Counted from the stretch's first letter, positions 16,335 through 29,294 are shown. The stretch: DNA of 64,000 nucleotides from Lautropia sp. (GCA_050249335.1 JBFWQR010000007.1:20943-84942); one strand, 5' to 3'. Notes: generated from the sequence alone by a model not told the origin. Numbers and translations: made by a program.

Positions 16335-17627
16335 ATGAGCAGCCACGACGCGGCCGCGATCGCCGGCCCCTGGCTGAGCCGCAACGCCGATGGCCGGCTG
16401 CTCGCCGACGGCCTCGACCTCGAGCAGCTGGCGCAGCGCTTCGGCACGCCGCTCTACCTCTATTCGCGCGCGCAGATCGAAGCGACCTGGGAACAGTTCC
16501 GGCTCGCGATCAAGGGACACCATGCCCGCGTCTGCTATGCATTGAAGGCCAACAGCAATCTCGCGATCGTCGAGCTGATGAAATCGCTCGGCTGCGGGTT
16601 CGACATCGTCTCGGGCGGTGAGCTCGAGCGCGTCGTCGCCGCCGGCGGCGATCCCGGCGACGTGCTGTTCTCCGGCGTCGGCAAGACGGTGGCCGAACTG
16701 ACGCGCGCGCTGGAGCTCGGCGTGCGCTGCTTCAACGTCGAATCGCTGGCCGAGCTCGATCGGCTCGACGAGATCGCCGGCCGCGTCGGCAAGCGCGCAC
16801 CGGTCTCGCTGCGGATCAACCCCGACGTCGACGCGGCAACCCATCCGTACATCTCGACCGGCCTCAAGGAGAACAAGTTCGGCATCGCCTACGGTGACGC
16901 GGCCGAGGCCTACCTCCGGGCGGCGGCGCTGCCGAATCTGGAAGTGGTCGGCATCGATTGCCACATCGGCTCGCAGATCGTCGAGGTCGCGCCGTTCCTC
17001 GCGGCGCTCGACCGGGTGCTGGCGCTGGTCGACCAGCTGGCCCGCGCCGGCATCACGCTGCGCCATCTCGACCTCGGCGGCGGCCTCGGCATCCGCTACG
17101 ACGACGAGCAGCCGCCGGCGCCGGCCGAGCTGATGCAGGCGCTGTTCGCCCGCATCGAGCAATGGAGCAGCGGCGAGCCGCCGGAGGTGCTGTTCGAGTT
17201 CGGCCGTGCGCTGGTCGGCAATGCCGGCGTGCTGCTGACGCGGGTCGAACTGCTGAAGCACAATGGCGACCGCCGGTTCGCCGTCGTCGATGCGGCGATG
17301 AACGATCTGCTGCGGCCGTCGCTCTATCAGGCCTACCACCGGATCGAACCGGTGCAGGTCCGCGACGGCGCCGGCGCCAGCTACGACATCGTCGGCCCGG
17401 TCTGCGAATCGGGGGACTGGCTCGGTCGCGACCGCAAGCTCGTGCTCGCGCCCGGCGACCTGCTGGCGGTCCTTTCGGCCGGCGCCTACGGCATGGCGAT
17501 GAGCTCGAACTACAACACCCGGCCGCGCGCCGCCGAAGTACTGATCGACCGTGGCACGCCGGTGCTGATTCGCGAACGCGAAACGGTCGCGGCGCTGTTC
17601 GCCGGCGAGCGGCGGCTGCCGGGTTGA
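16335..17627 (+). CDS. lysA: Diaminopimelate decarboxylase
   Basis: CYALKANSN, FDIVSGGEL, CHIGSQ, LDLGGGLG, GPVCESGD, SSNYNTRPR. Confidence 0.95.
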   Translation: MSSHDAAAIAGPWLSRNADGRLLADGLDLEQLAQRFGTPLYLYSRAQIEATWEQFRLAIKGHHARVCYALKANSNLAIVELMKSLGCGFDIVSGGELERVVAAGGDPGDVLFSGVGKTVAELTRALELGVRCFNVESLAELDRLDEIAGRVGKRAPVSLRINPDVDAATHPYISTGLKENKFGIAYGDAAEAYLRAAALPNLEVVGIDCHIGSQIVEVAPFLAALDRVLALVDQLARAGITLRHLDLGGGLGIRYDDEQPPAPAELMQALFARIEQWSSGEPPEVLFEFGRALVGNAGVLLTRVELLKHNGDRRFAVVDAAMNDLLRPSLYQAYHRIEPVQVRDGAGASYDIVGPVCESGDWLGRDRKLVLAPGDLLAVLSAGAYGMAMSSNYNTRPRAAEVLIDRGTPVLIRERETVAALFAGERRLPG

Positions 17628-17779
17628 CGACCGCGACGGGCCGTCGCGCGCTCGCGAAAACGCCAGCAGACCGCCCCCGGTTTGCCCAGCCTCCACGGTA
17701 GACCCGACTCGTCAGCGGCGGGTCCGGGGGCGCTCGGGCAGGCGCTGGTCTCGAACAGCGCCCGCTCGAATTTGTATCT

Positions 17780-17809
17780 TGTTGACACGGAGTGCAACAT
17801 GCCTATCAT
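17780..17809 (+). promoter_or_regulatory. Sigma70-like promoter with overlapping dyad upstream of peptide ABC operon
   Basis: TTGACA (17782-17787) N16 TATCAT (17804-17809); TGTTG-N10-CAACA dyad spanning the -35. Confidence 0.6.
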
Positions 17810-17920
17810 CGCCACGACCCGTCGCGCCGCTGCACGACTCATCGCGCCGCCAGAGCGCAGCGCATCTCCCGCGCGCTCGCAGCGCGCTCTGGCAGACCGA
17901 CCACCGTGAGGAACCCGCCC

Positions 17921-19501
17921 ATGTCGCCGAGCAATGCCATCTCCGTCTGTCGAGGCCTTTCCGCGCTGCTGCTCGGCGCATGTGGTCTGCTTCTCCCTGC
18001 CCAGGCATCGGCCCAGGCGCTGGCGGCGCAGCAGGTGGTGCGGTTCGGCCTGGGGGTCGACGACATCCGCACGGTCGACCCCCAGATCGCGACCAGCGTC
18101 GGCGAGTCGCCGATCATCGAGTTCGTCTACGAGAGCCTGGCGAGATTCCCCGAGGGCGTGATCGACCCTGCCCGGATCGAGCCGAGTCTGGCGGAGTCCT
18201 GGTCGATGACGCCCGACGGTCGCAGCTGGACCTTCAAGCTGCGCAAGGGCGTCAAGTGGCACGGCAACCACGGCGATTTCACCGCGGACGACGTGATCTA
18301 CTCGCTCGATCGCCTCAAGGATCCGAAGACCGCGTCGCCCTTCACCGCGAACCTCGGGCTGATCGAGAAAGCGGAGAAGATCGACGATCACACGGTGCGC
18401 CTGACCACGAAGCGCCCGGAAGCCAACCTGCCCGCGCTGCTGGTCGGCTCCAACCGCGCTTACGTGGTCTCGAAGGCGGCCGTGAGCGCCGGTGTGGATC
18501 TGCGCACCCAGCCGGTCGGCACCGGACCGTTCCAGGTCTCCGAGTATCGGCCGCGCGAGTCGTTCATCCTCGTGCGCAACGAGAACTACTGGCAGGGCAA
18601 GCCGATCATCGAACGGATCGTCGCGCAGTTCATGTCCAACGCCAGCACCCGGGAGCTGGCGCTGCGCAGCGGCGACGTCCATGCCATCGAGATCGCGGCA
18701 AGCCAGGACGTCATCGAACGGATGCGCCGCGCCAAGATGCACGTCGATCTGACCGTCCCGGCCAACGCGTTCATGCTGTACTTCAACCCGACCATCAAGC
18801 CGTTCGATGACATCCGGGTGCGACGCGCGCTTTCGCACGCGGTCGACCGCCGGGCCATGCTCAAGTTCATGGGCGACGAAGTCTCCATCGAAGAGACGAG
18901 CCCGCTGCCGATCGGCTACCTCGGGCATGCCAAGGACGTGCCGAGCTATCCGTACGACCCGGCCAAGGCCAAGTCGCTGCTCGCCGAAGCCGGCTTTCCG
19001 GAAGGCTTCAGCGCGACGCTGCCGGTCAGCAACAACAACATCTATCTGCCGCCGATGCAGATCATCCAGGAGCAGTGGCGCAAGCTCGGCGTGAACCTGA
19101 CGCTCAACGTGGTGGACCACCCGACCTATCACCGGCTGATCCGCCAGAACGTCAGCCCGGTGGTGATCTACGGGGCCTATCGCTACCCGATGGACGGCAT
19201 CCGCTACCTGGACGAGTTCTGGCTGTCCTCGTCGATCATCGGCACGCCGACCGCGGTCACCAACTTCTCCCACTATCGCGCCGTCGATTCGATGCTGGAA
19301 GCCGCGCGCACCGAGACCGATCTCGGCAAGCGCAACGGGTACTGGGAACAGGCTCAGCGGAAAATCATGGAGGATGCCATGGCCGTCCCGCTGTTCACCC
19401 GGACCTACGCGATGGCGCGCAGTCCCAAGCTGGACGTCGGTCACGCGCAGAAGAGCTACACGTTCTATACGTTGTCGAAGGACTCGCGCCTGCTGCGCTG
19501 A
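17921..19501 (+). CDS. Peptide/nickel ABC transporter substrate-binding protein (family 5)
   Basis: Signal peptide; PSLAESWSM..DGRSWTFKLRKGVKWH, FTADDVIYS, VGTGPF. Confidence 0.92.
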   Translation: MSPSNAISVCRGLSALLLGACGLLLPAQASAQALAAQQVVRFGLGVDDIRTVDPQIATSVGESPIIEFVYESLARFPEGVIDPARIEPSLAESWSMTPDGRSWTFKLRKGVKWHGNHGDFTADDVIYSLDRLKDPKTASPFTANLGLIEKAEKIDDHTVRLTTKRPEANLPALLVGSNRAYVVSKAAVSAGVDLRTQPVGTGPFQVSEYRPRESFILVRNENYWQGKPIIERIVAQFMSNASTRELALRSGDVHAIEIAASQDVIERMRRAKMHVDLTVPANAFMLYFNPTIKPFDDIRVRRALSHAVDRRAMLKFMGDEVSIEETSPLPIGYLGHAKDVPSYPYDPAKAKSLLAEAGFPEGFSATLPVSNNNIYLPPMQIIQEQWRKLGVNLTLNVVDHPTYHRLIRQNVSPVVIYGAYRYPMDGIRYLDEFWLSSSIIGTPTAVTNFSHYRAVDSMLEAARTETDLGKRNGYWEQAQRKIMEDAMAVPLFTRTYAMARSPKLDVGHAQKSYTFYTLSKDSRLLR

Positions 19502-19537
19502 CCGCGCCGCTCCCGGAACCGTTCGGATCGGCGCGCG

Positions 19538-20479
19538 ATGCTGGCCTACACCGCGAAGCGCCTGGCCGCGGCGGTCGTGATCATGTGGGCGGTCGCGACG
19601 CTGGTCTTCTTCGCGATGCGGCTGGTGCCCGCCGATCCCGCCGAGGTCGTGCTCGGCGAATACGCGACCCAGGAGGCGATGCAGGCGTTTCGCCGCAGCG
19701 CCGGCCTCGACCGGCCGCTCGCCGAGCAGTACCTGACGTTCATGGAGGGCCTGCTGCGCGGCGACCTGGGGCGCTCGCTGATCACCAACCAGCCGGTCGC
19801 CGACCAGATCGCGAAACTGTTCCCGTACACGCTCGAGCTCGCGCTCGCATCGCTGTTCGTCGGCGCCGCGATCGGCATCCCGCTCGGCGTGCTGACCGCC
19901 GCGCATCGCGACACCTGGATCGACTATCTCGGGCGCCTGTTCGCGCTCTCCGGCTTCTCGTTTCCGGCGTTCTACCTCGGCATCCTGCTGCTGCTGCTGT
20001 TCTCGCTGCAGCTCGAGTGGCTGCCGGTCGTGCACAGCTTCCAGACCGACGAATGGGGCGAGCGCCTGCAGAAGCTGATCCTGCCGGCCGGTAGCCTCGG
20101 CATCATCCAGGCTGCCTACATCACGCGCCTGACCCGATCGTCGATGCTGGAGCAGATGGGCGCCGACTATGTCCGGACCGCCCGGTCCAAAGGCCTGTCG
20201 GAGGCACGCGTGCAGTACAAGCACGTGCTGCGCAACGTGCTGATCCCGGTGGTCACGGCAATGGGTCTCTACACCGGCACGATCCTCGGCGGTGCCGTGC
20301 TGACCGAGACCGTCTTCAATCGCCCCGGCATCGGCAAGCTGCTGATCGGCGCGATCGCGCAGCGCGACTACAACCTGATCCAGTCGGGTCTGATGATCTT
20401 CGCGTTCGTCGTCGTGCTGATCAACCTGCTGGTCGACCTGAGCTATTCGCTGATCGATCCGCGCGTCAAGTATGAGTAG
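19538..20479 (+). CDS. Peptide ABC permease (DppB/OppB-like)
   Basis: RGDLGRS, EAA loop DYVRTARSKGL, ETVFNRPGIG. Confidence 0.93.
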   Translation: MLAYTAKRLAAAVVIMWAVATLVFFAMRLVPADPAEVVLGEYATQEAMQAFRRSAGLDRPLAEQYLTFMEGLLRGDLGRSLITNQPVADQIAKLFPYTLELALASLFVGAAIGIPLGVLTAAHRDTWIDYLGRLFALSGFSFPAFYLGILLLLLFSLQLEWLPVVHSFQTDEWGERLQKLILPAGSLGIIQAAYITRLTRSSMLEQMGADYVRTARSKGLSEARVQYKHVLRNVLIPVVTAMGLYTGTILGGAVLTETVFNRPGIGKLLIGAIAQRDYNLIQSGLMIFAFVVVLINLLVDLSYSLIDPRVKYE

Positions 20480-21380
20480 CTCGTCATTGTCGGCCGCCGT
20501 GCCTGCGGCCGGCACCTCGCTCTGGAGCACCGCGATCTGGCCGCGCATCCGGCGCGATCGCGGCGCGCTGCTCGCGCTCGGCTTCATCCTGCTGCTGGCG
20601 TCGATCGCGGTGTTCGCGCCGTGGATCGCACCGTTCGATCCGGTGGCCCAGGACATCGCCAATTCTTTCTCCGGCCCGAGCCGGGAGCACTGGTTCGGCA
20701 CCGACGAGTACGGCCGGGACGTGCTCAGCCGCATCATCCACGGCGCCCGGCCGGCGCTCTCGGTCGGGATCCTGTCCGTGCTGTTTGCGCTGGTGATCGG
20801 CATTCCGATCGGCATCGTCGCCGGCTTGCGGCTCGGCTGGTTCGACCGCGCCGTCGGCTGGGCGGTCGACATCATGCTCGCCTTCCCGTCGCTGCTGCTC
20901 GCGCTGCTGATCGTCACGCTGCTCGGCTCGAGCCTGCCGATGCTGATCCTGGCGATCGGCATCTCGAACGTGCCGCTGTTCATCCGCCTGGCACGCGGCT
21001 CGACGCTGGTGGTCCGCGGCCTGGAGTACGTCCAGATGGCCCGCGCCTTCGGCGCGTCGGAACTGCGGATCGTGATCCGGCACGTCCTGCCCAACATCGT
21101 CGGGCCGATCATCGTGATGAGCACCCTGAGCGTCGCGGGCGCGGTTCGCGAGGAGGCGAGCCTGAGCTTCCTGGGGCTCGGCGTGCGGCCGCCGCAGCCG
21201 AGCTGGGGCAACCTGATCCAGGACGGCATCAGCAACCTGTTCGACGCCCCCGGCCTGGCGGTCTTGCCCGGGCTGATCCTGACACTGGCGGTGCTGGCCT
21301 TCAACGTCGTCGGCGACGTGCTGCGCGACGTGCTCGACCCGAACGACATGACGCGCCGGAAGCCGGCGGGCAGGTCGTGA
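20472..21380 (+). CDS. Peptide ABC permease (DppC/OppC-like)
   Basis: HWFGTDEYGRDVLSR, EYVQMARAFGAS, LSFLGLGVRPPQPSWG. Confidence 0.93.
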   Translation: MSSSSLSAAVPAAGTSLWSTAIWPRIRRDRGALLALGFILLLASIAVFAPWIAPFDPVAQDIANSFSGPSREHWFGTDEYGRDVLSRIIHGARPALSVGILSVLFALVIGIPIGIVAGLRLGWFDRAVGWAVDIMLAFPSLLLALLIVTLLGSSLPMLILAIGISNVPLFIRLARGSTLVVRGLEYVQMARAFGASELRIVIRHVLPNIVGPIIVMSTLSVAGAVREEASLSFLGLGVRPPQPSWGNLIQDGISNLFDAPGLAVLPGLILTLAVLAFNVVGDVLRDVLDPNDMTRRKPAGRS

Positions 21381-22411
21381 GCCGCCAGATTGCCGGCGCC
21401 GCCGCTGCCGCCGGATCCGCCGGCAGCGGCGAGCCGCTGCTGAGCGTCGAAGGCGTCCGGCTGGGCTTCGATACACCGCAGGGCAGCCTCGTCGTCGTCG
21501 ACGAGGTGAGTTTCACGGTGGCCGCCGCCGAGACGCTCGCGATCGTCGGCGAATCGGGTTGCGGCAAGAGCGTGACAGCGATGTCGATCCTGCGGTTGAC
21601 GCCGGCACGATTCCTCGCCGGACGGGTGCAGTTCGATGGCCGCAACCTCGCAACGCTCGACCTCGGCGCCCTGCGCCGGGTCCGCGGCGGCGAGATCGGC
21701 TACATCTTCCAGGAGCCGATGACCTCGCTGAATCCGGTCTTCACGGTCGGCGATCAGATCGTCGAGCCGCTGATTCAGCATCGCGGCCTGACGCGGCGGC
21801 AGGCGCTGCGCGAAGCCGTCGAGCTGCTGGCGATGGTCAACATTCCGTCGCCGTCGGCACGCGTGCACGAATATCCGCACCAGCTCTCCGGCGGCATGCG
21901 GCAGCGCGTGATGATCGCGATCGCGATCTCGTGCCGGCCCCGGCTGCTGATCGCCGACGAGCCGACCACCGCGCTGGACGTCACCGTCCAGGCCCAGATC
22001 CTCGAGCTGCTGCGGCGGCTGCAGCGCGAGCTCGGCATGGGCATCATCCTGATCACCCACGACATGGGCGTCGTGTCCGAATTCTCGGACCGCGTCGTGG
22101 TCATGTATGCCGGACGGATCGCCGAGGTGAGCCGGACCTCCGACCTGTTCGAGGCACCCGGCCACCCGTACACGCAGGCGCTGCTCGACAGCATCCCGCC
22201 GATCGATCGCGAGGTCGAGCGGCTGCATGCACTGGCCGGCGTCGTGCCGTCACCCGACCGCATGCCGGCGGGCTGCCGCTTCTTCGACCGCTGCGCCCAT
22301 GCCGCACCGCCGTGTCGCGAAGCCCCGGCGCGGCCGCAGCAGCGTGCCGGCGGCCGCTCGACCGCCTGCGTCCGTGCCCTCGACGGATCGCTGCAGCGGG
22401 AAACGGCCTGA
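21377..22411 (+). CDS. Peptide ABC ATP-binding protein (DppD-like)
   Basis: [23 protein letters not shown]; GTG start overlapping previous stop. Confidence 0.92.
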
Positions 22412-22427
22412 TGACGGAGACCGCCGG

Positions 22428-23468
22428 ATGACCGAGCTGCAGCGCCGCACATCGGGCAGCGATGCCGACCGGCTGCCGCCGCTGATGGAGGCACGGGGCC
22501 TGGCGATGCACTTCCGGGGACCGCCGGCCGGCCTGTTGCGCCGCCGCCGGCCGGTCCGCTCGGTCGACGGCATCGATCTGCGGATCGCGTGCGGCAGCAC
22601 CGTGGGGCTGGTCGGCGAGAGCGGCTGCGGCAAGTCCACGACCGCCCGGCTGCTGATGCGATTGCTGCAGCCGACCGCCGGGCAGATCCTGCTCGACGGG
22701 CGCGACATCACCCGGCTCAGCCAGGCAAAGCTCCGGCCGCTGCGGCCGGCATTCCAGATGATCGCGCAGGATCCCTTCAGCTCGCTCAATCCGCGGATGC
22801 GGGTCAGCCGGATCATCGCCGAGCCGCTGGAGATCGCGGGGCTCGCGGCCGCCGAGCGGCGGCCGCGCATCCAGCAGGCGCTGGCGCGCGTCAGCCTGAC
22901 GGCGCAGCACGGCGAACGCTATCCGCACGAGTTCTCGGGCGGGCAGCGACAGCGGATCGCGATCGCCCGCGCGCTGGTGCTGCAGCCGCGGCTGCTGATC
23001 TGCGACGAGCCGGTCTCCGCGCTCGACGTGTCGGTGCAGGCCCAGATCATCAATCTGCTCCAGGACCTGCAGCGTGACGCCGGCCTGACCTATCTGTTCG
23101 TGAGCCACGATCTCGGCGTCGTCAAGCACATCGCCACCGAGGTCGCGGTGATGTACCTGGGCCGGATCGTCGAGCACGGGCCGAAGCGGGCGCTGTTCGC
23201 GCGGCCGCGGCACCCGTACACGCACGCCCTGCTGTCGGCGATCCCGCGCGTGGGCGCCCGTCGGAGCGAACGGATCGTGCTGCAGGGTGATCTGCCGAGC
23301 CCGATCGATCCGCCGGCGGGCTGCCGCTTCCATACCCGCTGTCCCCGGGCGCGCAGCGAATGCCGCGGCGAGGAGCCCGCGCTGCGTGTCGTCGACGCGG
23401 ACCCGGCCGATGCGAACCCGGCCGATGCCGACCCGGCGCACCGGGTCGCCTGTCACTTCCCGCTTTGA
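22428..23468 (+). CDS. Peptide ABC ATP-binding protein (DppF-like)
   Basis: [35 protein letters not shown]; DADPA repeats near C-terminus. Confidence 0.92.
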
Positions 23469-23485
23469 AACTTTGATGCAATCGG

Positions 23486-24991
23486 ATGGATCCGACCATG
23501 AGCAACCAGTCCCGGCGCGCTCGCGTGGCGCTCGCAGGCTTCCAACTCGAGTCCGTCAGCTTCCTGCCGCTCAGTTGCGAGCTGGCTGATTTCGAGCGGG
23601 CGGCGCTGCGCGGCGAGGCCATCCTGACCGCGCTGCGCGGCACCAACACCGCGCCTGGCGGCATCATCGAGGTCTGCGAGCGCGAAGGCCTGGAGATCTT
23701 CCCGGTGCTGCAGACCAGCTGCGGCGCGGCCGGCCCCGGCACCGACGAAGCGATCGCTACGCTGACCCGCGAGATCGTCGACGCGATCGCGGCGGAACGC
23801 GACCGGCTCGACGGCGTGCTGCTGTTCCTGCACGGCGCCTGCTGGTCGCCCGGCTACCTGGACCCGGAGCGCCATGTCATCGACGAGGTGCGCCGGGTGC
23901 TCGGTCCGGACAAGCCGCTGATGGTCGCGCTCGACTACCACGGCAATCTCGACGCCCGGACACTGGCCGGCGCCGACGGTGCATTCGGCTATCGCAAGTC
24001 ACCGCATACCGATGCCGGCGAGACCGGCCGGCGCACGGCCGACTGCATGGTGCGCACGTTGCGCGGAGAGATCAGGCCCCGCATCCATCTGAAGAAGCCC
24101 GGCGTCCTGGTACCGAGCATCTTCAGCGCAACCGACCTGAAGCCGCTATCCGACCTGATCGCGGAGGCGGCGAGGATGCAGGCGACCAGCCCGGCCTATG
24201 TAGACTTCACGATCATGGCGGGCTTCTCCTACACCGATGCGCCGAACACCGGATTCAGCGTGCTGGCCACCGCCGACCACGGCCACCCGGAGGTCGCGGC
24301 GCAGGTGCAGCAGCTGTCCGACCGGATTCACGGCCAGCGCCACGCGCTCTATCGTCCGTTGCCGGTCTACACGGTCGATCAGGCGCTGGACCGGGTGCGC
24401 GCGATACCGCCGGTGCCCGGCCGTCCGCTGATCCTGCTCGAGCACGCCGACCGGGTCAACGACTCCACCTATGTGCTGGCCGGCCTGCTCGAGCGCGGCC
24501 TGCGCCGGGCGACCGTGCCGCTGCTGTGGGATGCCGAGGCGGCGCGGATCGCCGCCCGGGCCGGCGCCGGACAGACGGTGCGGATGCGACTGGGCGCCCA
24601 CAGCTCGGACCGTGCCGGCCCGCGGCTGGATGTCGAAGCCACGGTGCTGGAGGTCGGCGAACGTCACTTCCTGAACACCGGCAGCTACATGCAGGGGCTG
24701 CGGGTCGATCTGGGCCTGACGGCGCTGGTCGAGATCGCCGGCATCCAGGTCAGCATCACCTCCGAGTCCCACACCGCGGTCAACGGCGATCCGTTCTATC
24801 TGTTCGGCCGGAAGCCCGAGGACTTCGAGATCATCGTGCTGCGCTCCAAGACCCATTTCCGTCATTTCTACGAGCCGATCGCCAGCGAGATCCTGATCGT
24901 CGACACGCCCGACCACGGCCCCGCGGACCTGACCACGCTGCCGTTCCGGCACCTCGACACCGGCGCGGCGTATCCGTTCACGGATTCCTGA
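23486..24991 (+). CDS. M81 family metallopeptidase (MlrC-like)
   Basis: LFLHGA, LDYHGN, YRKSPHTD, IVLRSKTHFR motifs typical of the MlrC family. Confidence 0.85.
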   Translation: MDPTMSNQSRRARVALAGFQLESVSFLPLSCELADFERAALRGEAILTALRGTNTAPGGIIEVCEREGLEIFPVLQTSCGAAGPGTDEAIATLTREIVDAIAAERDRLDGVLLFLHGACWSPGYLDPERHVIDEVRRVLGPDKPLMVALDYHGNLDARTLAGADGAFGYRKSPHTDAGETGRRTADCMVRTLRGEIRPRIHLKKPGVLVPSIFSATDLKPLSDLIAEAARMQATSPAYVDFTIMAGFSYTDAPNTGFSVLATADHGHPEVAAQVQQLSDRIHGQRHALYRPLPVYTVDQALDRVRAIPPVPGRPLILLEHADRVNDSTYVLAGLLERGLRRATVPLLWDAEAARIAARAGAGQTVRMRLGAHSSDRAGPRLDVEATVLEVGERHFLNTGSYMQGLRVDLGLTALVEIAGIQVSITSESHTAVNGDPFYLFGRKPEDFEIIVLRSKTHFRHFYEPIASEILIVDTPDHGPADLTTLPFRHLDTGAAYPFTDS

Positions 24992-25001
24992 AGGCCGGCC
25001 C

Positions 25002-26306
25002 GTGGATTCCACCCCCGATCTCGCGGCGGTGCTGCCGGAAGCGGCGGCACTCGGCGCGCGGCTGTTCGACGATCTGCTGGCCGCGACCCGGGACCCCGCC
25101 GGCGGCGTCACCCGCGCCTCCTACGGCGAAGGTGAACAGGCCGCCCACGCGATCGTGGCACGGCAGGCCCGCGCGATGGCGCTGGAGGTGAGCCAGGACG
25201 CCGCGCTCAATACCTACCTGACCTGGCCCGGCGCCGATCGATCGGCGCCGCGCCTGGTGATCGGATCGCATCTCGATTCGGTCCGCTGCGGCGGCAACTT
25301 CGACGGCGCCGCCGGCGTCGTCGCGGGCCTGTCGGCGGTGCGGCTGCTGCAGCAGTCGGGCTGGCGACCCCCTGCCGACGTGACGGTCATGGGCGTGCGC
25401 GCCGAGGAAAGCGCCTGGTTCCAGACTTCGTACATCGGCAGCCGCGCCGCCCTCGGCCGCCTCGGCACCGCGGCGCTGCAGGCCCGCCGGGTCGATACCG
25501 GCCGGACGCTGGCCGAACATCTGCGTGAATGCGGCGGCGAGCCCGACCGCCTGCACGGGCGACCGCCGCACCTGCATCCGGGCAATGTCTGCGCCTATCT
25601 CGAGGTCCATATCGAGCAGGCGCCCGCGCTCGTGCATGCCGGCCGGCCCCTGGCCGTCGGCGCCGGTATCCCGGGCAATTTCCGCCACCCGTGGGTGCGG
25701 ATCGTCGGCGAGACCGCGCATGTCGGCCTGGCGCGGCGCTATCGCAGCGATGCCCTGGTCGCGGCCTGCGCCCTGATCGCGGAGCTCGATGCGCTGTGGG
25801 CGCGCTGGGAGGCGGCCGGCCGCGCGATGGCCTTCACGGTGGGGCGGCTGCACACCGATGCCGGCAACGACGCGATGACCAAGGTCGCCGGCGAGGTCGG
25901 CTTGAGCCTCGACATGCGCGCCTGGGATCCAGCCGATCTCGACGAACTGGAGCACGAACTCTCGGTCATCGCCCGGGCCGTGTCGGAGCGCTACCGGGTC
26001 CGCTTCGAATGGGGCGAACGGACGACCGCGCCGGTCGCCCGCTGCGCGCCGGCGATTCAGGCCGAGCTGCGCGACTGCACCCGGCGGACCGGCGCGGCCG
26101 GCCCCGACCTGCCGAGCCCCGCCTCGCACGACGCCGCCGAGTTCGCCGCGGCCGGGATTCCGATGGGCCTGCTGCTGATCCGCAACGAACACGGCAGCCA
26201 CAACCCGGCGGAGAGCCTGGCACCATCCGATTTCCAGCACGCCGTGCAGGTACTGACCCTGTGGCTGATGCACACGCGCTGCTGGACCAACTGGAGTTCC
26301 CCGTGA
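25002..26306 (+). CDS. M20 family Zn hydrolase (N-carbamoyl-amino acid/allantoate amidohydrolase-like)
   Basis: GSHLDSV..GGNFDGAAG, RAEES, EVHIEQ, ASHDA. Confidence 0.9.
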   Translation: MDSTPDLAAVLPEAAALGARLFDDLLAATRDPAGGVTRASYGEGEQAAHAIVARQARAMALEVSQDAALNTYLTWPGADRSAPRLVIGSHLDSVRCGGNFDGAAGVVAGLSAVRLLQQSGWRPPADVTVMGVRAEESAWFQTSYIGSRAALGRLGTAALQARRVDTGRTLAEHLRECGGEPDRLHGRPPHLHPGNVCAYLEVHIEQAPALVHAGRPLAVGAGIPGNFRHPWVRIVGETAHVGLARRYRSDALVAACALIAELDALWARWEAAGRAMAFTVGRLHTDAGNDAMTKVAGEVGLSLDMRAWDPADLDELEHELSVIARAVSERYRVRFEWGERTTAPVARCAPAIQAELRDCTRRTGAAGPDLPSPASHDAAEFAAAGIPMGLLLIRNEHGSHNPAESLAPSDFQHAVQVLTLWLMHTRCWTNWSSP

Positions 26307-27643
26307 CCCACATCGTTCACCGCAGTCTCAAGAATCGCCCACCCGTCGCCCGCCGTGCCGAAGGCGTCTACATCTACGACGAAACCGGCAAGCAGTACCT
26401 GGACGCCTGCGGCGGTGCCGCGGTCTCCTGCCTCGGTCACGGGCATCCGGACGTCGTCGAGGCCATGACCAGCCAGCTCCGGACGCTCGCCTACGCCCAT
26501 ACCGGCTTCTTCACCTCCGACGTGGCGGAAGAGCTCGCCGACCAGCTGGTCGCGAATGCGCCGAGCGGCCTCGACCACGTCTATTTCGTCTCCGGAGGCT
26601 CCGAGGCGATGGAAGCCGCGCTCAAGCTCGCGCGGCAGTACTTCGTGGAGATCGGGCAGCCGCAACGCACCACGTTCATCGCGCGCCGCCAGAGCTACCA
26701 CGGCAACACGCTCGGTGCGCTGGCGGTGGGCGGCAACGAAGCGCGGCGCCGGCAGTTCGCGCCGCTGCTGATCGAGACCGGCCGGGTTTCCGCGTGCTTC
26801 GAGTATCGCGGTCGCGCGGACGGCGAATCCCAGGCGCAGTACACGCAGCGGCTGCTCCGGGAGCTGGAAGACAAGGTGCTCGAGATCGGGCCGGACAAGG
26901 TCATCGGCTTCTGCGCCGAGACGGTCGTCGGGGCGACGACCGGCGCCGTGCCGCCGACTCCGGGCTACCTGAAGGGCGTGCGCGAGATCTGCGATCGCTA
27001 CGGCATGCTCTACATCGCCGACGAAGTCATGTGCGGCATGGGGCGCACCGGCACGCTGCACGCCGTCGAGCAGGAAGACGTCGTGCCCGACCTGCTCGCG
27101 ATCGCCAAGGGGCTGGGCGGCGGCTACCAGCCGATCGGCGCGCTGCTGATCGCCGGCCGGATGGTCGACTCGTTGCGGCGCGGCAGCGGACTCTTCCAGC
27201 ACGGCCACACCTACCTCGGGCATCCGACCGCGTGCGCCGCGGCGCTGGCGGTCCAGAAGGTCATCCAGCGCGACCGGCTGCTGCCGCAGGTGCGCGCGCG
27301 CGGCGACTACCTGCGCAACGCGCTCGAACGCCGATTCGGCGAGCATCCCCATGTCGGCGACATCCGCGGCCGCGGCCTCTTCCTCGGCGTCGAGCTGGTG
27401 CAGGACCGCGCGAGCAAGAAGCCGTTCGAGCCCGGCCTGCAGCTGCACGCCCGCCTGAAGGCGCGCGCGATGGCCAATGGCCTGATGATCTACCCGATGG
27501 GCGGCACCATCGACGGCCAGGCCGGCGATCATTTCCTGATCGCGCCGCCGTTCATCGTCACGCCGGAGCAGCTCGACGAGGCCGTCGAGCGGCTGACGCG
27601 TTCGCTCGACGAGGCGCTGCAGTCGCTGCCGGCGCATGCCTGA
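26303..27643 (+). CDS. Class III PLP-dependent aminotransferase (paralog of 2751..4091)
   Basis: YLDACGG, SGGSEA, SYHGNT, ADEVMCGMGRTG, IAKGLGGGY; GTGA overlap. Confidence 0.93.
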   Translation: MTHIVHRSLKNRPPVARRAEGVYIYDETGKQYLDACGGAAVSCLGHGHPDVVEAMTSQLRTLAYAHTGFFTSDVAEELADQLVANAPSGLDHVYFVSGGSEAMEAALKLARQYFVEIGQPQRTTFIARRQSYHGNTLGALAVGGNEARRRQFAPLLIETGRVSACFEYRGRADGESQAQYTQRLLRELEDKVLEIGPDKVIGFCAETVVGATTGAVPPTPGYLKGVREICDRYGMLYIADEVMCGMGRTGTLHAVEQEDVVPDLLAIAKGLGGGYQPIGALLIAGRMVDSLRRGSGLFQHGHTYLGHPTACAAALAVQKVIQRDRLLPQVRARGDYLRNALERRFGEHPHVGDIRGRGLFLGVELVQDRASKKPFEPGLQLHARLKARAMANGLMIYPMGGTIDGQAGDHFLIAPPFIVTPEQLDEAVERLTRSLDEALQSLPAHA

Positions 27644-27682
27644 CCGGCGCCGGCGGCCGTACCGCCCGCTACCGGCAGGCGG

Positions 27683-28279
27683 TCAGCGCATCGCCGCGAC
27701 GCGGCGCTGGCGCAGCGCGAACCCGATCCGGACGCCGAGCAGGAGCAGCACGGCAGCCGCGAACCAGGCCGGCTCGGCCAGGTCGTTCTTGTCCGACTTC
27801 AGCCACCAGAAGTGCAGCACGCCGAGGGCGGCGATCGGATAGACCAGCTTGTGCAGCGTCGCCCAGCGCCGGCCGAGCCGCTTCATCATCCGGCTGGTCG
27901 AGGTCGCCGCCAACGGGATCAGCAGCAGGAACGCCGCGAAGCCGGCCGTGATGAACGGCCGCTTCACGATGTCCTTCAGGATCTCGTCGATCGCGAAGCC
28001 CTGATCGAACCAGGCATAGGTGACGAAGTGGGCGAACGCGTAGAAGAACGCATAGAGGCCCAGCATCCGGCGCAGCCGCGCCACCGCGGTCCAGCCGGCG
28101 AGCCGGCGCAGCGGCGTCACCGTCAGCGTCAGACAGAGGAACGTCAGCGCCCACCAGCCGGTCGAATGGGTGACGAACTCGACCGGATTGGCCCCGAGCC
28201 GGCCGTGATATCCGAGCACGAACAGCCGGACGAACGGCACCAGCGACAACAGGAAAACGACCGGCTTCAGCCAGCGCAT
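27683..28279 (-). CDS. msrQ: Methionine sulfoxide reductase heme subunit MsrQ
   Basis: LRRMLGLYAF, KRPFIT, LHKLVY; follows msrP. Confidence 0.92.
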   Translation of the reverse strand: MRWLKPVVFLLSLVPFVRLFVLGYHGRLGANPVEFVTHSTGWWALTFLCLTLTVTPLRRLAGWTAVARLRRMLGLYAFFYAFAHFVTYAWFDQGFAIDEILKDIVKRPFITAGFAAFLLLIPLAATSTSRMMKRLGRRWATLHKLVYPIAALGVLHFWWLKSDKNDLAEPAWFAAAVLLLLGVRIGFALRQRRVAAMR

Positions 28280-28310
28280 CGCGGCCCCCCGGCCCCGGCC
28301 GCAGCGGCGC

Positions 28311-29294
28311 TCAGAAGTATTTGCGCAGATCCATCCCGGCGTAGAGTCGCGCCACCTGCTCGCCGTAGCCGTTGAACGGCAGCGTCCTGCGCTTGCGCGC
28401 GAAGAAGCCGTCCTCGCCGATGCGCCGTTCGGTCGCCTGCGACCAGCGCGGATGATCGACGTCGGGGTTGACGTTCGAGTAGAAACCGTACTCGGTCGGG
28501 CCCGCGCGCACCCAGCTCGGCACCGGCTGCTTCTCGGTGAAGCGGATCCTGACGATCGACTTGCCCGACTTGAAGCCGTACTTCCACGGCACCACCATCC
28601 GCACCGGCGCGCCGTTCTGGGTCGGCAGCACGTTGCCGTACAGACCGAAGCCGAGCAGCGTCAGCGGATGCATTGCCTCGTCGAGCCGCAGCGCTTCGAC
28701 ATAGGGCCAGTCGAGCACGCCCGAACGCAGCCCGGGCATCTGCTTCGGGTCGCCGAGCGTGACGAACTCGACGAACTTGGCATTGCCGGTCGGCTGCACC
28801 TGGTCGATCAGCGCCGACAGCGAATAGCCGATCCACGGAATCACCATCGACCAGCCTTCGACGCAGCGCATCCGGTAGATCCGGTCTTCCATCGGCGCGA
28901 GCTTCAGCAGTTCGTCGATGTCGTAGGTCTTCGGTCTGGCGATCTCGCCTTCGACCGCGACGGTCCAGGGCCGCGTCGCCAGCGTGCCGGCATAGCGCGC
29001 CGGATCGTCCTTTTCGGTGCCGAATTCGTAGAAGTTGTTGTAGGAGGTGATGTCCTCGTAGCTGGTCGCCTTCTCCATCGTCGACAGCGGACTCATCGTC
29101 GCGGGCAGCTTGGCGAGCCGATCGCGCGCGGGCGGCTTCCGGCTCTGCGCACACAGCGCCGCCGGCAACCCGAGCCCGGCGCTGCCGGCGGCGAAGCCTG
29201 CCGCGGCGAGCAGCGACCGGCGGCGGCGGTAGACCCGCTGCGGCGTCACCTCCGAGGCGGCCGGCTCCGAGCCATCGCGAATCCTGATCAGCAT
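28311..29294 (-). CDS. msrP: Methionine sulfoxide reductase catalytic subunit MsrP
   Basis: Tat RR signal; [36 protein letters not shown]. Confidence 0.95.

Follow-up and report, generated by a model that had tools for sequence, protein, structure and literature searches.

A 64,000-nucleotide stretch of DNA from Lautropia sp. (GCA_050249335.1, JBFWQR010000007.1:20943-84942; hereafter the window, with positions counted from its first letter) carries an operon of eight genes at 17921-27643. These genes encode an ATP-binding cassette (ABC) importer of the Dpp/Opp type, an MlrC-like zinc hydrolase of peptidase family M81, an M20 amidase and a class III aminotransferase. All eight genes are tightly packed on the plus strand, with intergenic spacing between -8 and +36 nt, and their predicted domains were confirmed by profile searches and inspection of the start codons. 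The promoter and the genes are located as follows.

17782-17809, plus strand: sigma-70-type promoter, TTGACA-N16-TATCAT, matching the consensus at 11 of 12 positions
17921-19501, plus strand: periplasmic SBP_bac_5 substrate-binding protein (cluster C) with a signal-peptide-like N-terminus, Pfam 294 bits
19538-20479, plus strand: ABC permease of DppB/OppB type, BPD_transp_1 plus BPD_transp_1_N
20472-21380, plus strand: ABC permease of DppC/OppC type, BPD_transp_1 plus OppC_N
21377-22411, plus strand: ABC ATPase of DppD/OppD type, ABC_tran plus oligo_HPY; the GTG start overlaps the stop codon of the upstream permease
22428-23468, plus strand: ABC ATPase of DppF/OppF type, ABC_tran plus oligo_HPY; NF008453 404.9 against a cut-off of 408
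23498 (or 23486)-24991, plus strand: M81 (MlrC-like) zinc hydrolase, cytoplasmic, DUF1485 plus MlrC_C
25002-26306, plus strand: M20 amidase of the hydantoinase/carbamoylase family, TIGR01879
26303-27643, plus strand: class III (omega-type) aminotransferase, PF00202 and NF005685

The promoter is the sole sigma-70-like site within 17300-28400. Upstream of the operon, lysA ends at 17627 (TIGR01048, 526 bits), and downstream the convergent msrQ (Ferric_reduct) and msrP (Oxidored_molyb) genes start from 27683. An earlier reading of the sequence alone (the sequence-only reading) had described eight co-directional genes behind one strong promoter between lysA and msrQ, and this description was borne out on all three counts: by the confirmed genes, by the single near-consensus site preceding them and by the profile matches of the flanking genes. 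A riboswitch or leader RNA was also considered and was dropped, as the Rfam scan of 17400-28400, including the 110-nt leader, gave no family match at E up to 1.

The M81 protein belongs to the MEROPS/Pfam family by both its domains and its zinc ligands. DUF1485 (PF07364) scored 250.6 bits against a gathering cut-off of 22.8 and MlrC_C (PF07171) scored 125.7 against 27.2, while E18, D146, H148 and H170 align with the zinc ligands E39, D167, H169 and H191 of MlrC and are invariant across 26 orthologs. The same two-domain organization with all four zinc ligands is shared with MlrC (MEROPS M81; PDB 7YLQ) and with the uncharacterised M81 protein 3IUU. The protein lacks a signal-peptide-like N-terminus, and the binding protein of the operon has one. 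Alignment to MlrC is weak (98.9 bits, E 3e-27), and the score for the MlrC microcystinase model NF041767 was 97.7 bits against a cut-off of 999. The zinc ligands and the catalytic and substrate residues of MlrC used for the alignment are those of PMC9982164. In contrast to MlrC, the M81 protein of the operon differs at the general base and at substrate-pocket residues: E70 of MlrC aligns with T49 of a conserved GTNT motif and N41 with V20, both in a stretch of low alignment confidence. Unlike the genes around MlrC, the operon contains no mlrA, mlrB or mlrD, and the M81 module described below is associated instead with a carbamoylase, an omega-transaminase and an RpiR regulator. As judged from the sequence, the M81 protein is not a microcystinase; identity as a true MlrC was ruled out by the NF041767 score and the non-conserved E70 and N41.

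The M20 protein reached 221 bits with TIGR01879 (cut-off 204), and its motifs GSHLDSV, FDGAAGV, AEES, HIEQ, LDMR, AHVG and GSHNP align with 3N5F. Comparison with 3N5F shows that it has kept the residues for metal binding, both catalytic Glu residues, the Gln and His that bind the ureido group and the Arg that binds the carboxylate (roles of the aligned residues from PMC10952681). The M20 equivalog models for allantoate amidohydrolase, ErtE and AllC all remained below their cut-offs, the best being NF009527 (388.5 against 461), with ErtE at 232.7 against 520. For the aminotransferase, PF00202 gave 315 bits and NF005685 (the PRK07483 group) 765.7 against a cut-off of 485. Its nearest solved relatives are pyruvate-dependent omega-transaminases, an indirect pointer that it may act on a beta or omega amine. 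All three enzymes retain their catalytic residues.

The importer is intact and has the complete Dpp/Opp (PepT) composition, with an SBP_bac_5 receptor, two BPD_transp_1 permeases and two ABC_tran plus oligo_HPY ATPases. The binding protein scored below every NCBIfam equivalog cut-off, including those of DppA (NF043070; 178.9 against 1005), GsiB (155.8 against 594), NikA (163.5 against 393) and also OppA. Its closest solved relative is MoaA, the receptor for the opine mannopinic acid (363 bits against 187 for the next, 38-40% identity). The MoaABCD importer of octopine-type Ti plasmids is a Dpp-type ABC system like that of the operon. In the Ti region, MoaA is paired with an oxidoreductase, the HyuAB-type lactamase AgaFG and a DeoR regulator, and M81, M20 and aminotransferase genes are lacking.

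Orthologs of the M81 protein with 45-67% identity were found in Alcaligenaceae, Comamonadaceae, Halomonadaceae, Rhizobiales and Acetobacteraceae. Open reading frames around 77 M81-ortholog loci were clustered and the cluster representatives were annotated, and an M81 tree was constructed by a quick IQ-TREE search with SH-aLRT as the sole support measure. The M81 protein of the window falls in a supported clade of 62 rows (61 loci and the window), which carries the module neighbours, and genes within 8 kb of M81 were counted for these 61 loci. An RpiR regulator (HTH_6 plus SIS) was detected in 26 loci and an orthologous aminotransferase (58-71% identity) in 27. A CN-hydrolase was present in 13 loci and an orthologous M20 (50-62% identity) in 7, but never both at one locus. 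At least one among RpiR, aminotransferase, CN-hydrolase and M20 was found in 33 of the 42 clade loci with full flanks. The loci closest to that of the window have these genes arranged differently: at locus L092, aminotransferase and RpiR genes are divergent from those for the binding protein, permeases, ATPases and M81 (62-76% identity), and at L093 an ATPase and M81 face M20 and the aminotransferase. These observations altogether indicate that the enzyme set is a conserved module across many Proteobacteria. Among culturable bacteria, it is carried by Polaromonas jejuensis NBRC 106434, Variovorax humicola KACC 18501, Candidimonas nitroreducens, Halomonas species and Bordetella petrii.

The CN-hydrolases found as partners of M81 are similar to enzymes of the carbamoylase, N-carbamoylputrescine amidase and beta-ureidopropionase types. 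What the unrelated M20 and CN-hydrolase families have in common is ureido hydrolysis (EC 3.5.1.6, 3.5.1.77 and 3.5.1.87). Since M20 is exchanged for a CN-hydrolase of the carbamoylase branch and the two never occur together, a ureido-hydrolysis step is indicated. Beside the aminotransferase in other loci we detected BKACE (3 loci), a CMD-like decarboxylase (6 loci) and CoA-transferases, which fit with a beta-keto acid as the product of the aminotransferase. An Asp/Glu/hydantoin racemase and the ATP-dependent HyuAB each occur in 3 of the M81 neighbourhoods.

The type of transporter near M81 varies between loci: Dpp-type ABC in 25 loci, a TTT receptor in 12, TRAP in 5, TAXI-TRAP in 4 and MFS in 4. 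TRAP, TTT and TAXI systems are for carboxylate uptake. As the transporter changes from locus to locus, a small anion is a more probable substrate than ordinary, generic peptides. The five ABC importer genes described by the sequence-only reading were confirmed, but its label of a peptide ABC operon proved too narrow, given the MoaA-like receptor and the five transporter classes associated with the enzyme module.

Other arrangements of M81 were noted outside this module. In L075-L084 (Kiloniellaceae and other alphaproteobacterial metagenome-assembled genomes), a distant M81 clade of about 42% identity has other fixed partners, namely a LysR regulator, an AstE/AspA-type deacylase, an FGase-family amidohydrolase and a divergent Dpp-type ABC system, which suggests breakdown of N-acylated dipeptide-like compounds. 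In L036, L037, L039, L060, L067 and L131 (alphaproteobacteria and one metagenome-assembled genome of Burkholderiaceae), M81 lies within the ABC operon at the junction of the second permease and the first ATPase. Tandem M81 paralogs adjoin genes for gamma-glutamyltranspeptidase, an amidase-signature enzyme and a PfkB kinase in L045, L047, L055, L061 and L070. The source genome itself encodes eight M81 paralogs that are about 26-32% identical to the M81 of the operon, for example at C40:30391-31845, C192:634-2121 and C9:38514-39965, an unusual expansion for a family with one known function.

No regulator gene is included in the eight-gene operon itself. The sole close ortholog of the module RpiR in the source genome (49-55% identity) is encoded on contig C2. 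There, at C2:16043-24789 (locus L129:8043-16789), the RpiR gene is divergent from a class II aldolase-like gene, DctP, DctQ, DctM and HyuA-HyuB (ATP-dependent hydantoinase/oxoprolinase). The 200-bp intergenic region of this locus contains three copies of a TGTTGC(A/C) motif, one of them in the spacer of a TTGACA-N16-TATACT promoter. In other genomes, a motif resembling GAAACA-NN-TGTTGCA is found repeatedly between the RpiR gene and genes of the module. A position weight matrix for the operator, built only from the sites of other genomes, pointed to the following site in front of the operon.

17793-17807, minus strand: candidate RpiR-type operator, GATAGGCA-TGTTGCA, overlapping the promoter spacer and the -10 box; matrix match, tentative

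This site is the top match of the 64-kb window (16.4 against 12.0 for the next) and ranks 26th genome-wide. The best genome-wide score was obtained in the C2 intergenic region, which holds two further matches. Two points weigh against an operator at the promoter. An unbiased 7-mer count ranks TGCAACA first, but 24% of Markov shuffles attain as high a count; and the site in the window was first spotted as a shared 8-mer, so that motif support is weak and it is the matrix ranks alone that argue for the operator. Repression of the operon in trans by the C2 RpiR through this candidate promoter site is an evenly balanced proposition, and the operon and the C2 locus may share one regulon.

Taken together, the likely function of the operon is the uptake and breakdown of an amide or ureido compound that is small, anionic and non-standard. 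The general scheme, which we hold with somewhat better than middling confidence, consists of import, cleavage of an amide by M81, decarbamoylation by M20 and transamination of a beta or omega amine. The compound would be captured by the MoaA-like binding protein and imported by the ABC system. In the cytoplasm, the M81 zinc hydrolase would cleave an amide bond, and the M20 enzyme would remove the N-carbamoyl (ureido) group from the acid, releasing CO2 and NH3; either of these steps might come first. The omega-type aminotransferase would then pass the freed beta or omega amino group to an oxo-acid acceptor, and the resulting oxo acid would enter central metabolism. Expression of the operon would be controlled by the RpiR-type repressor from contig C2, bound over the promoter.

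The sequence-only reading had likewise proposed that an unusual peptide, or an N-acyl or ureido compound, with a non-alpha amino acid in it is imported and taken apart. This proposal gains support from the linkage of the enzymes, from the exchange between M20 and CN-hydrolase and from the beta-keto-acid enzymes near the aminotransferase. It would have fallen had the linkage of the three enzymes not been conserved, and the neighbourhood analysis found this linkage kept in the 61-locus M81 clade. A characterised orthologous operon with known substrate would also have overturned it; in the literature searched we found none, nor any characterised M81 enzyme other than MlrC or any description of this gene combination.

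Several points count against the scheme. To our knowledge MlrC is the single characterised member of M81, and this sole characterised enzyme cleaves a long linear peptide; no member of the M81 clade of the operon has a demonstrated substrate. Allantoate, ureidoglycolate and some N-acyl amino acids are also substrates of M20 enzymes of this family, so that the carbamoylase activity is putative. The identity of 38% to MoaA is insufficient for transferring ligand specificity. Finally, a carbamoylase-type gene lies near M81 in only about one-third of the clade loci and the aminotransferase in about one-half.

The same order of reactions is known from the lower hyu and reductive pyrimidine pathways, in which an M20 or CN-hydrolase carbamoylase-type enzyme (or beta-ureidopropionase) is followed by a class III transaminase of beta-alanine:pyruvate type, as in the operon. 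The racemase and HyuAB of such pathways occasionally lie near the module M81 too. In contrast to these pathways, the operon has no dihydropyrimidinase or hydantoinase of the amidohydrolase superfamily, M81 occupies the upstream position, and the transporters of the module point to an anionic substrate. Ectoine is degraded by the hydrolase DoeA, the deacetylase DoeB and the class III transaminase DoeD after uptake by TRAP or ABC systems. The likeness to this pathway is one of analogy, with the same logic of a peptidase-clan hydrolase, a deacylase, a class III transaminase and swappable transporters, but the families are M24 and AstE there and M81 and M20/CN-hydrolase here. On the symbiosis plasmid of Paraburkholderia phymatum, Bphy_7644-7651 have the same annotated order of binding protein, two permeases, two ATPases, M81 and class III aminotransferase, and the listed genes were all down in nodules of a nifA mutant (PMC8305402). 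This cluster is not a close ortholog, as no Paraburkholderia plasmid match was found at E below 1e-80. By analogy, the NifA-dependent co-expression in nodules of a similarly built cluster may be counted as support for the general scheme. The operon is an uncharacterised variant of a familiar type of catabolic cluster and not a categorically new system.

A more specific version of the scheme is that the M81 clade serves an undescribed pathway. In this version, the first committed step would be catalyzed by M81, with a carboxylated ureide or a beta-amino-acid pseudo-peptide as its substrate. M81 might open a ring, and it would feed a carbamoylase and a beta/omega-transaminase under the control of an RpiR repressor with a GAAACA-NN-TGTTGCA-type operator. 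We offer it as speculation that is rather unlikely to hold in full.

Among the alternatives, general peptide scavenging would combine an ordinary di- or oligopeptide importer with broad peptidases, and the aminotransferase would salvage nitrogen. The full Dpp/Opp architecture fits with it, M81 and M20 are both peptidase clans, and the eight M81 paralogs of the genome suggest a general role. Against these stand the occurrence of the same enzyme module with TRAP, TTT, TAXI and MFS carriers, none of which transports ordinary peptides, and a binding protein that is far under the DppA, OppA and GsiB cut-offs and nearest to an opine receptor. In addition, the M20 enzyme, a member of the carbamoylase/allantoate branch, gives way to a CN-hydrolase in other loci, and a dedicated RpiR regulator goes with the module. 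On this balance, peptide scavenging appears unlikely.

The use of a cyclic ureide, either a hydantoin or a dihydropyrimidine carboxylate, would place M81 in the role of hydantoinase, opening the ring ahead of the carbamoylase and transaminase. Classic hyu clusters comprise a permease, a racemase and a hydantoinase together with an L-carbamoylase (M20) or a D-carbamoylase (CN-hydrolase). Likeness to this composition speaks for such a role, as do the presence of either carbamoylase type, the racemase (3 loci) and HyuAB (3 loci) in M81 neighbourhoods, the position of the candidate C2 regulator next to DctPQM-HyuAB and the lack of a canonical hydantoinase in the module. The sole characterised M81 enzyme, however, cuts a linear peptide bond, and HyuAB and M81 are found together in some loci, which argues against redundancy between them. 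We regard ring opening by M81 as quite unlikely.

Catabolism of an opine-like or Amadori-like conjugate of sugar and amino acid is suggested by MoaA being the closest solved relative of the binding protein, by the SIS domain of the associated regulators, which typically binds sugar derivatives, by the HyuAB-type lactamases also present in the Ti-plasmid moa/aga region, and by the related clusters on rhizobial symbiosis plasmids (PMC8305402). The conserved module, however, includes no oxidoreductase, kinase or deglycase, and Ti plasmids have no M81, M20 or aminotransferase beside moaA. Homology with the Ti-plasmid aga/moa region beyond the binding protein was examined and rejected, the HyuAB of C2 being only 30-36% identical to AgaF and AgaG. 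Such conjugates are very unlikely substrates. Degradation of microcystin or nodularin fragments by a true MlrC, to which M81 family membership and the name 'microcystin degradation protein MlrC' given to homologs in several sources might point, is hardly credible in view of the NF041767 score, the weak alignment, the non-conserved E70 and N41 (PMC9982164) and the lack of mlrA, mlrB and mlrD.

The preferred reading, the catabolism of a small anionic amide or ureido compound, includes acquisition of the operon by a Lautropia-like Burkholderiales lineage, which would have taken place by horizontal transfer. The lysA loci of 29 relatives were compared for synteny, and 40 relatives were searched for orthologs of M81. 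The segment that interrupts the synteny is as follows.

17628-27682, strand not applicable: inserted segment between lysA and msrQ, defined by the lysA/msrQ-msrP synteny of relatives

In 10 of the 29 lysA loci, msrQ-msrP is directly adjacent to lysA and convergent with it at a distance of 15-200 bp, and the opposite neighbour of lysA is usually cyaY. All four closest relatives (lysA 71-75% identical) are among these 10. By its lysA homologs, the source organism groups with Lautropia-like metagenome-assembled genomes of Burkholderiaceae. No protein more than 31% identical to the M81 of the operon was present in any of the 40 relatives searched. Because lysA and msrQ adjoin in relatives and the M81 ortholog is missing from all 40, gain of the operon in this lineage is the parsimonious reading. 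An assembly artefact was rejected as an explanation, since a false join would not bring together two flanks that are syntenic neighbours in relatives. The sequence-only reading had called the operon an insertion and lysA and msrQ common neighbours in Burkholderiales; both statements agree with the comparison, in which the two genes are immediate convergent neighbours in the closest relatives.

Among the features expected of a genomic island, interrupted synteny and a cargo missing from relatives were found, and mobility genes, flanking repeats and deviant composition were not. No meaningful direct or inverted repeats flank 17628-27682, and no integrase or transposase was detected among the open reading frames at the locus. 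The GC content at third codon positions (GC3) was 0.88-0.95 for the operon and 0.85-0.94 for the flanking genes, showing no deviation in base composition. Mobile-element scars were considered and dropped for want of flanking repeats and of a compositional shift. With no repeats, no mobility genes and a GC3 equal to that of the flanks, the transfer would be old, or the donor was of similar composition. Set cleanly between two conserved neighbours with no mobility scars, the catabolic operon is a good example of its kind for this genome.

Separately, a perfect palindrome with 8-bp arms, CGCGACGG-G-CCGTCGCG, is located at 17632-17648, 5 nt past the stop codon of lysA, and is not followed by a T-run. 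This element, at the left edge of the insert, may be bound by a protein or may be what is left of a terminator.

The peptidase family M81 is large, and one well-supported clade is described here that is associated with RpiR, an omega-transaminase and a carbamoylase from either of two unrelated families. The combination of fixed partners and interchangeable transporters narrows the search for the M81 substrate to small anionic ureido or beta-amino compounds. If the undescribed pathway proposed above for this clade is true, it would represent the first function of M81 outside microcystin breakdown, and if M81 opens a ring, it would be a third, non-homologous kind of hydantoinase or dihydropyrimidinase. 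Solving the substrate would annotate hundreds of genes now called 'microcystin degradation protein', which almost certainly have another function.

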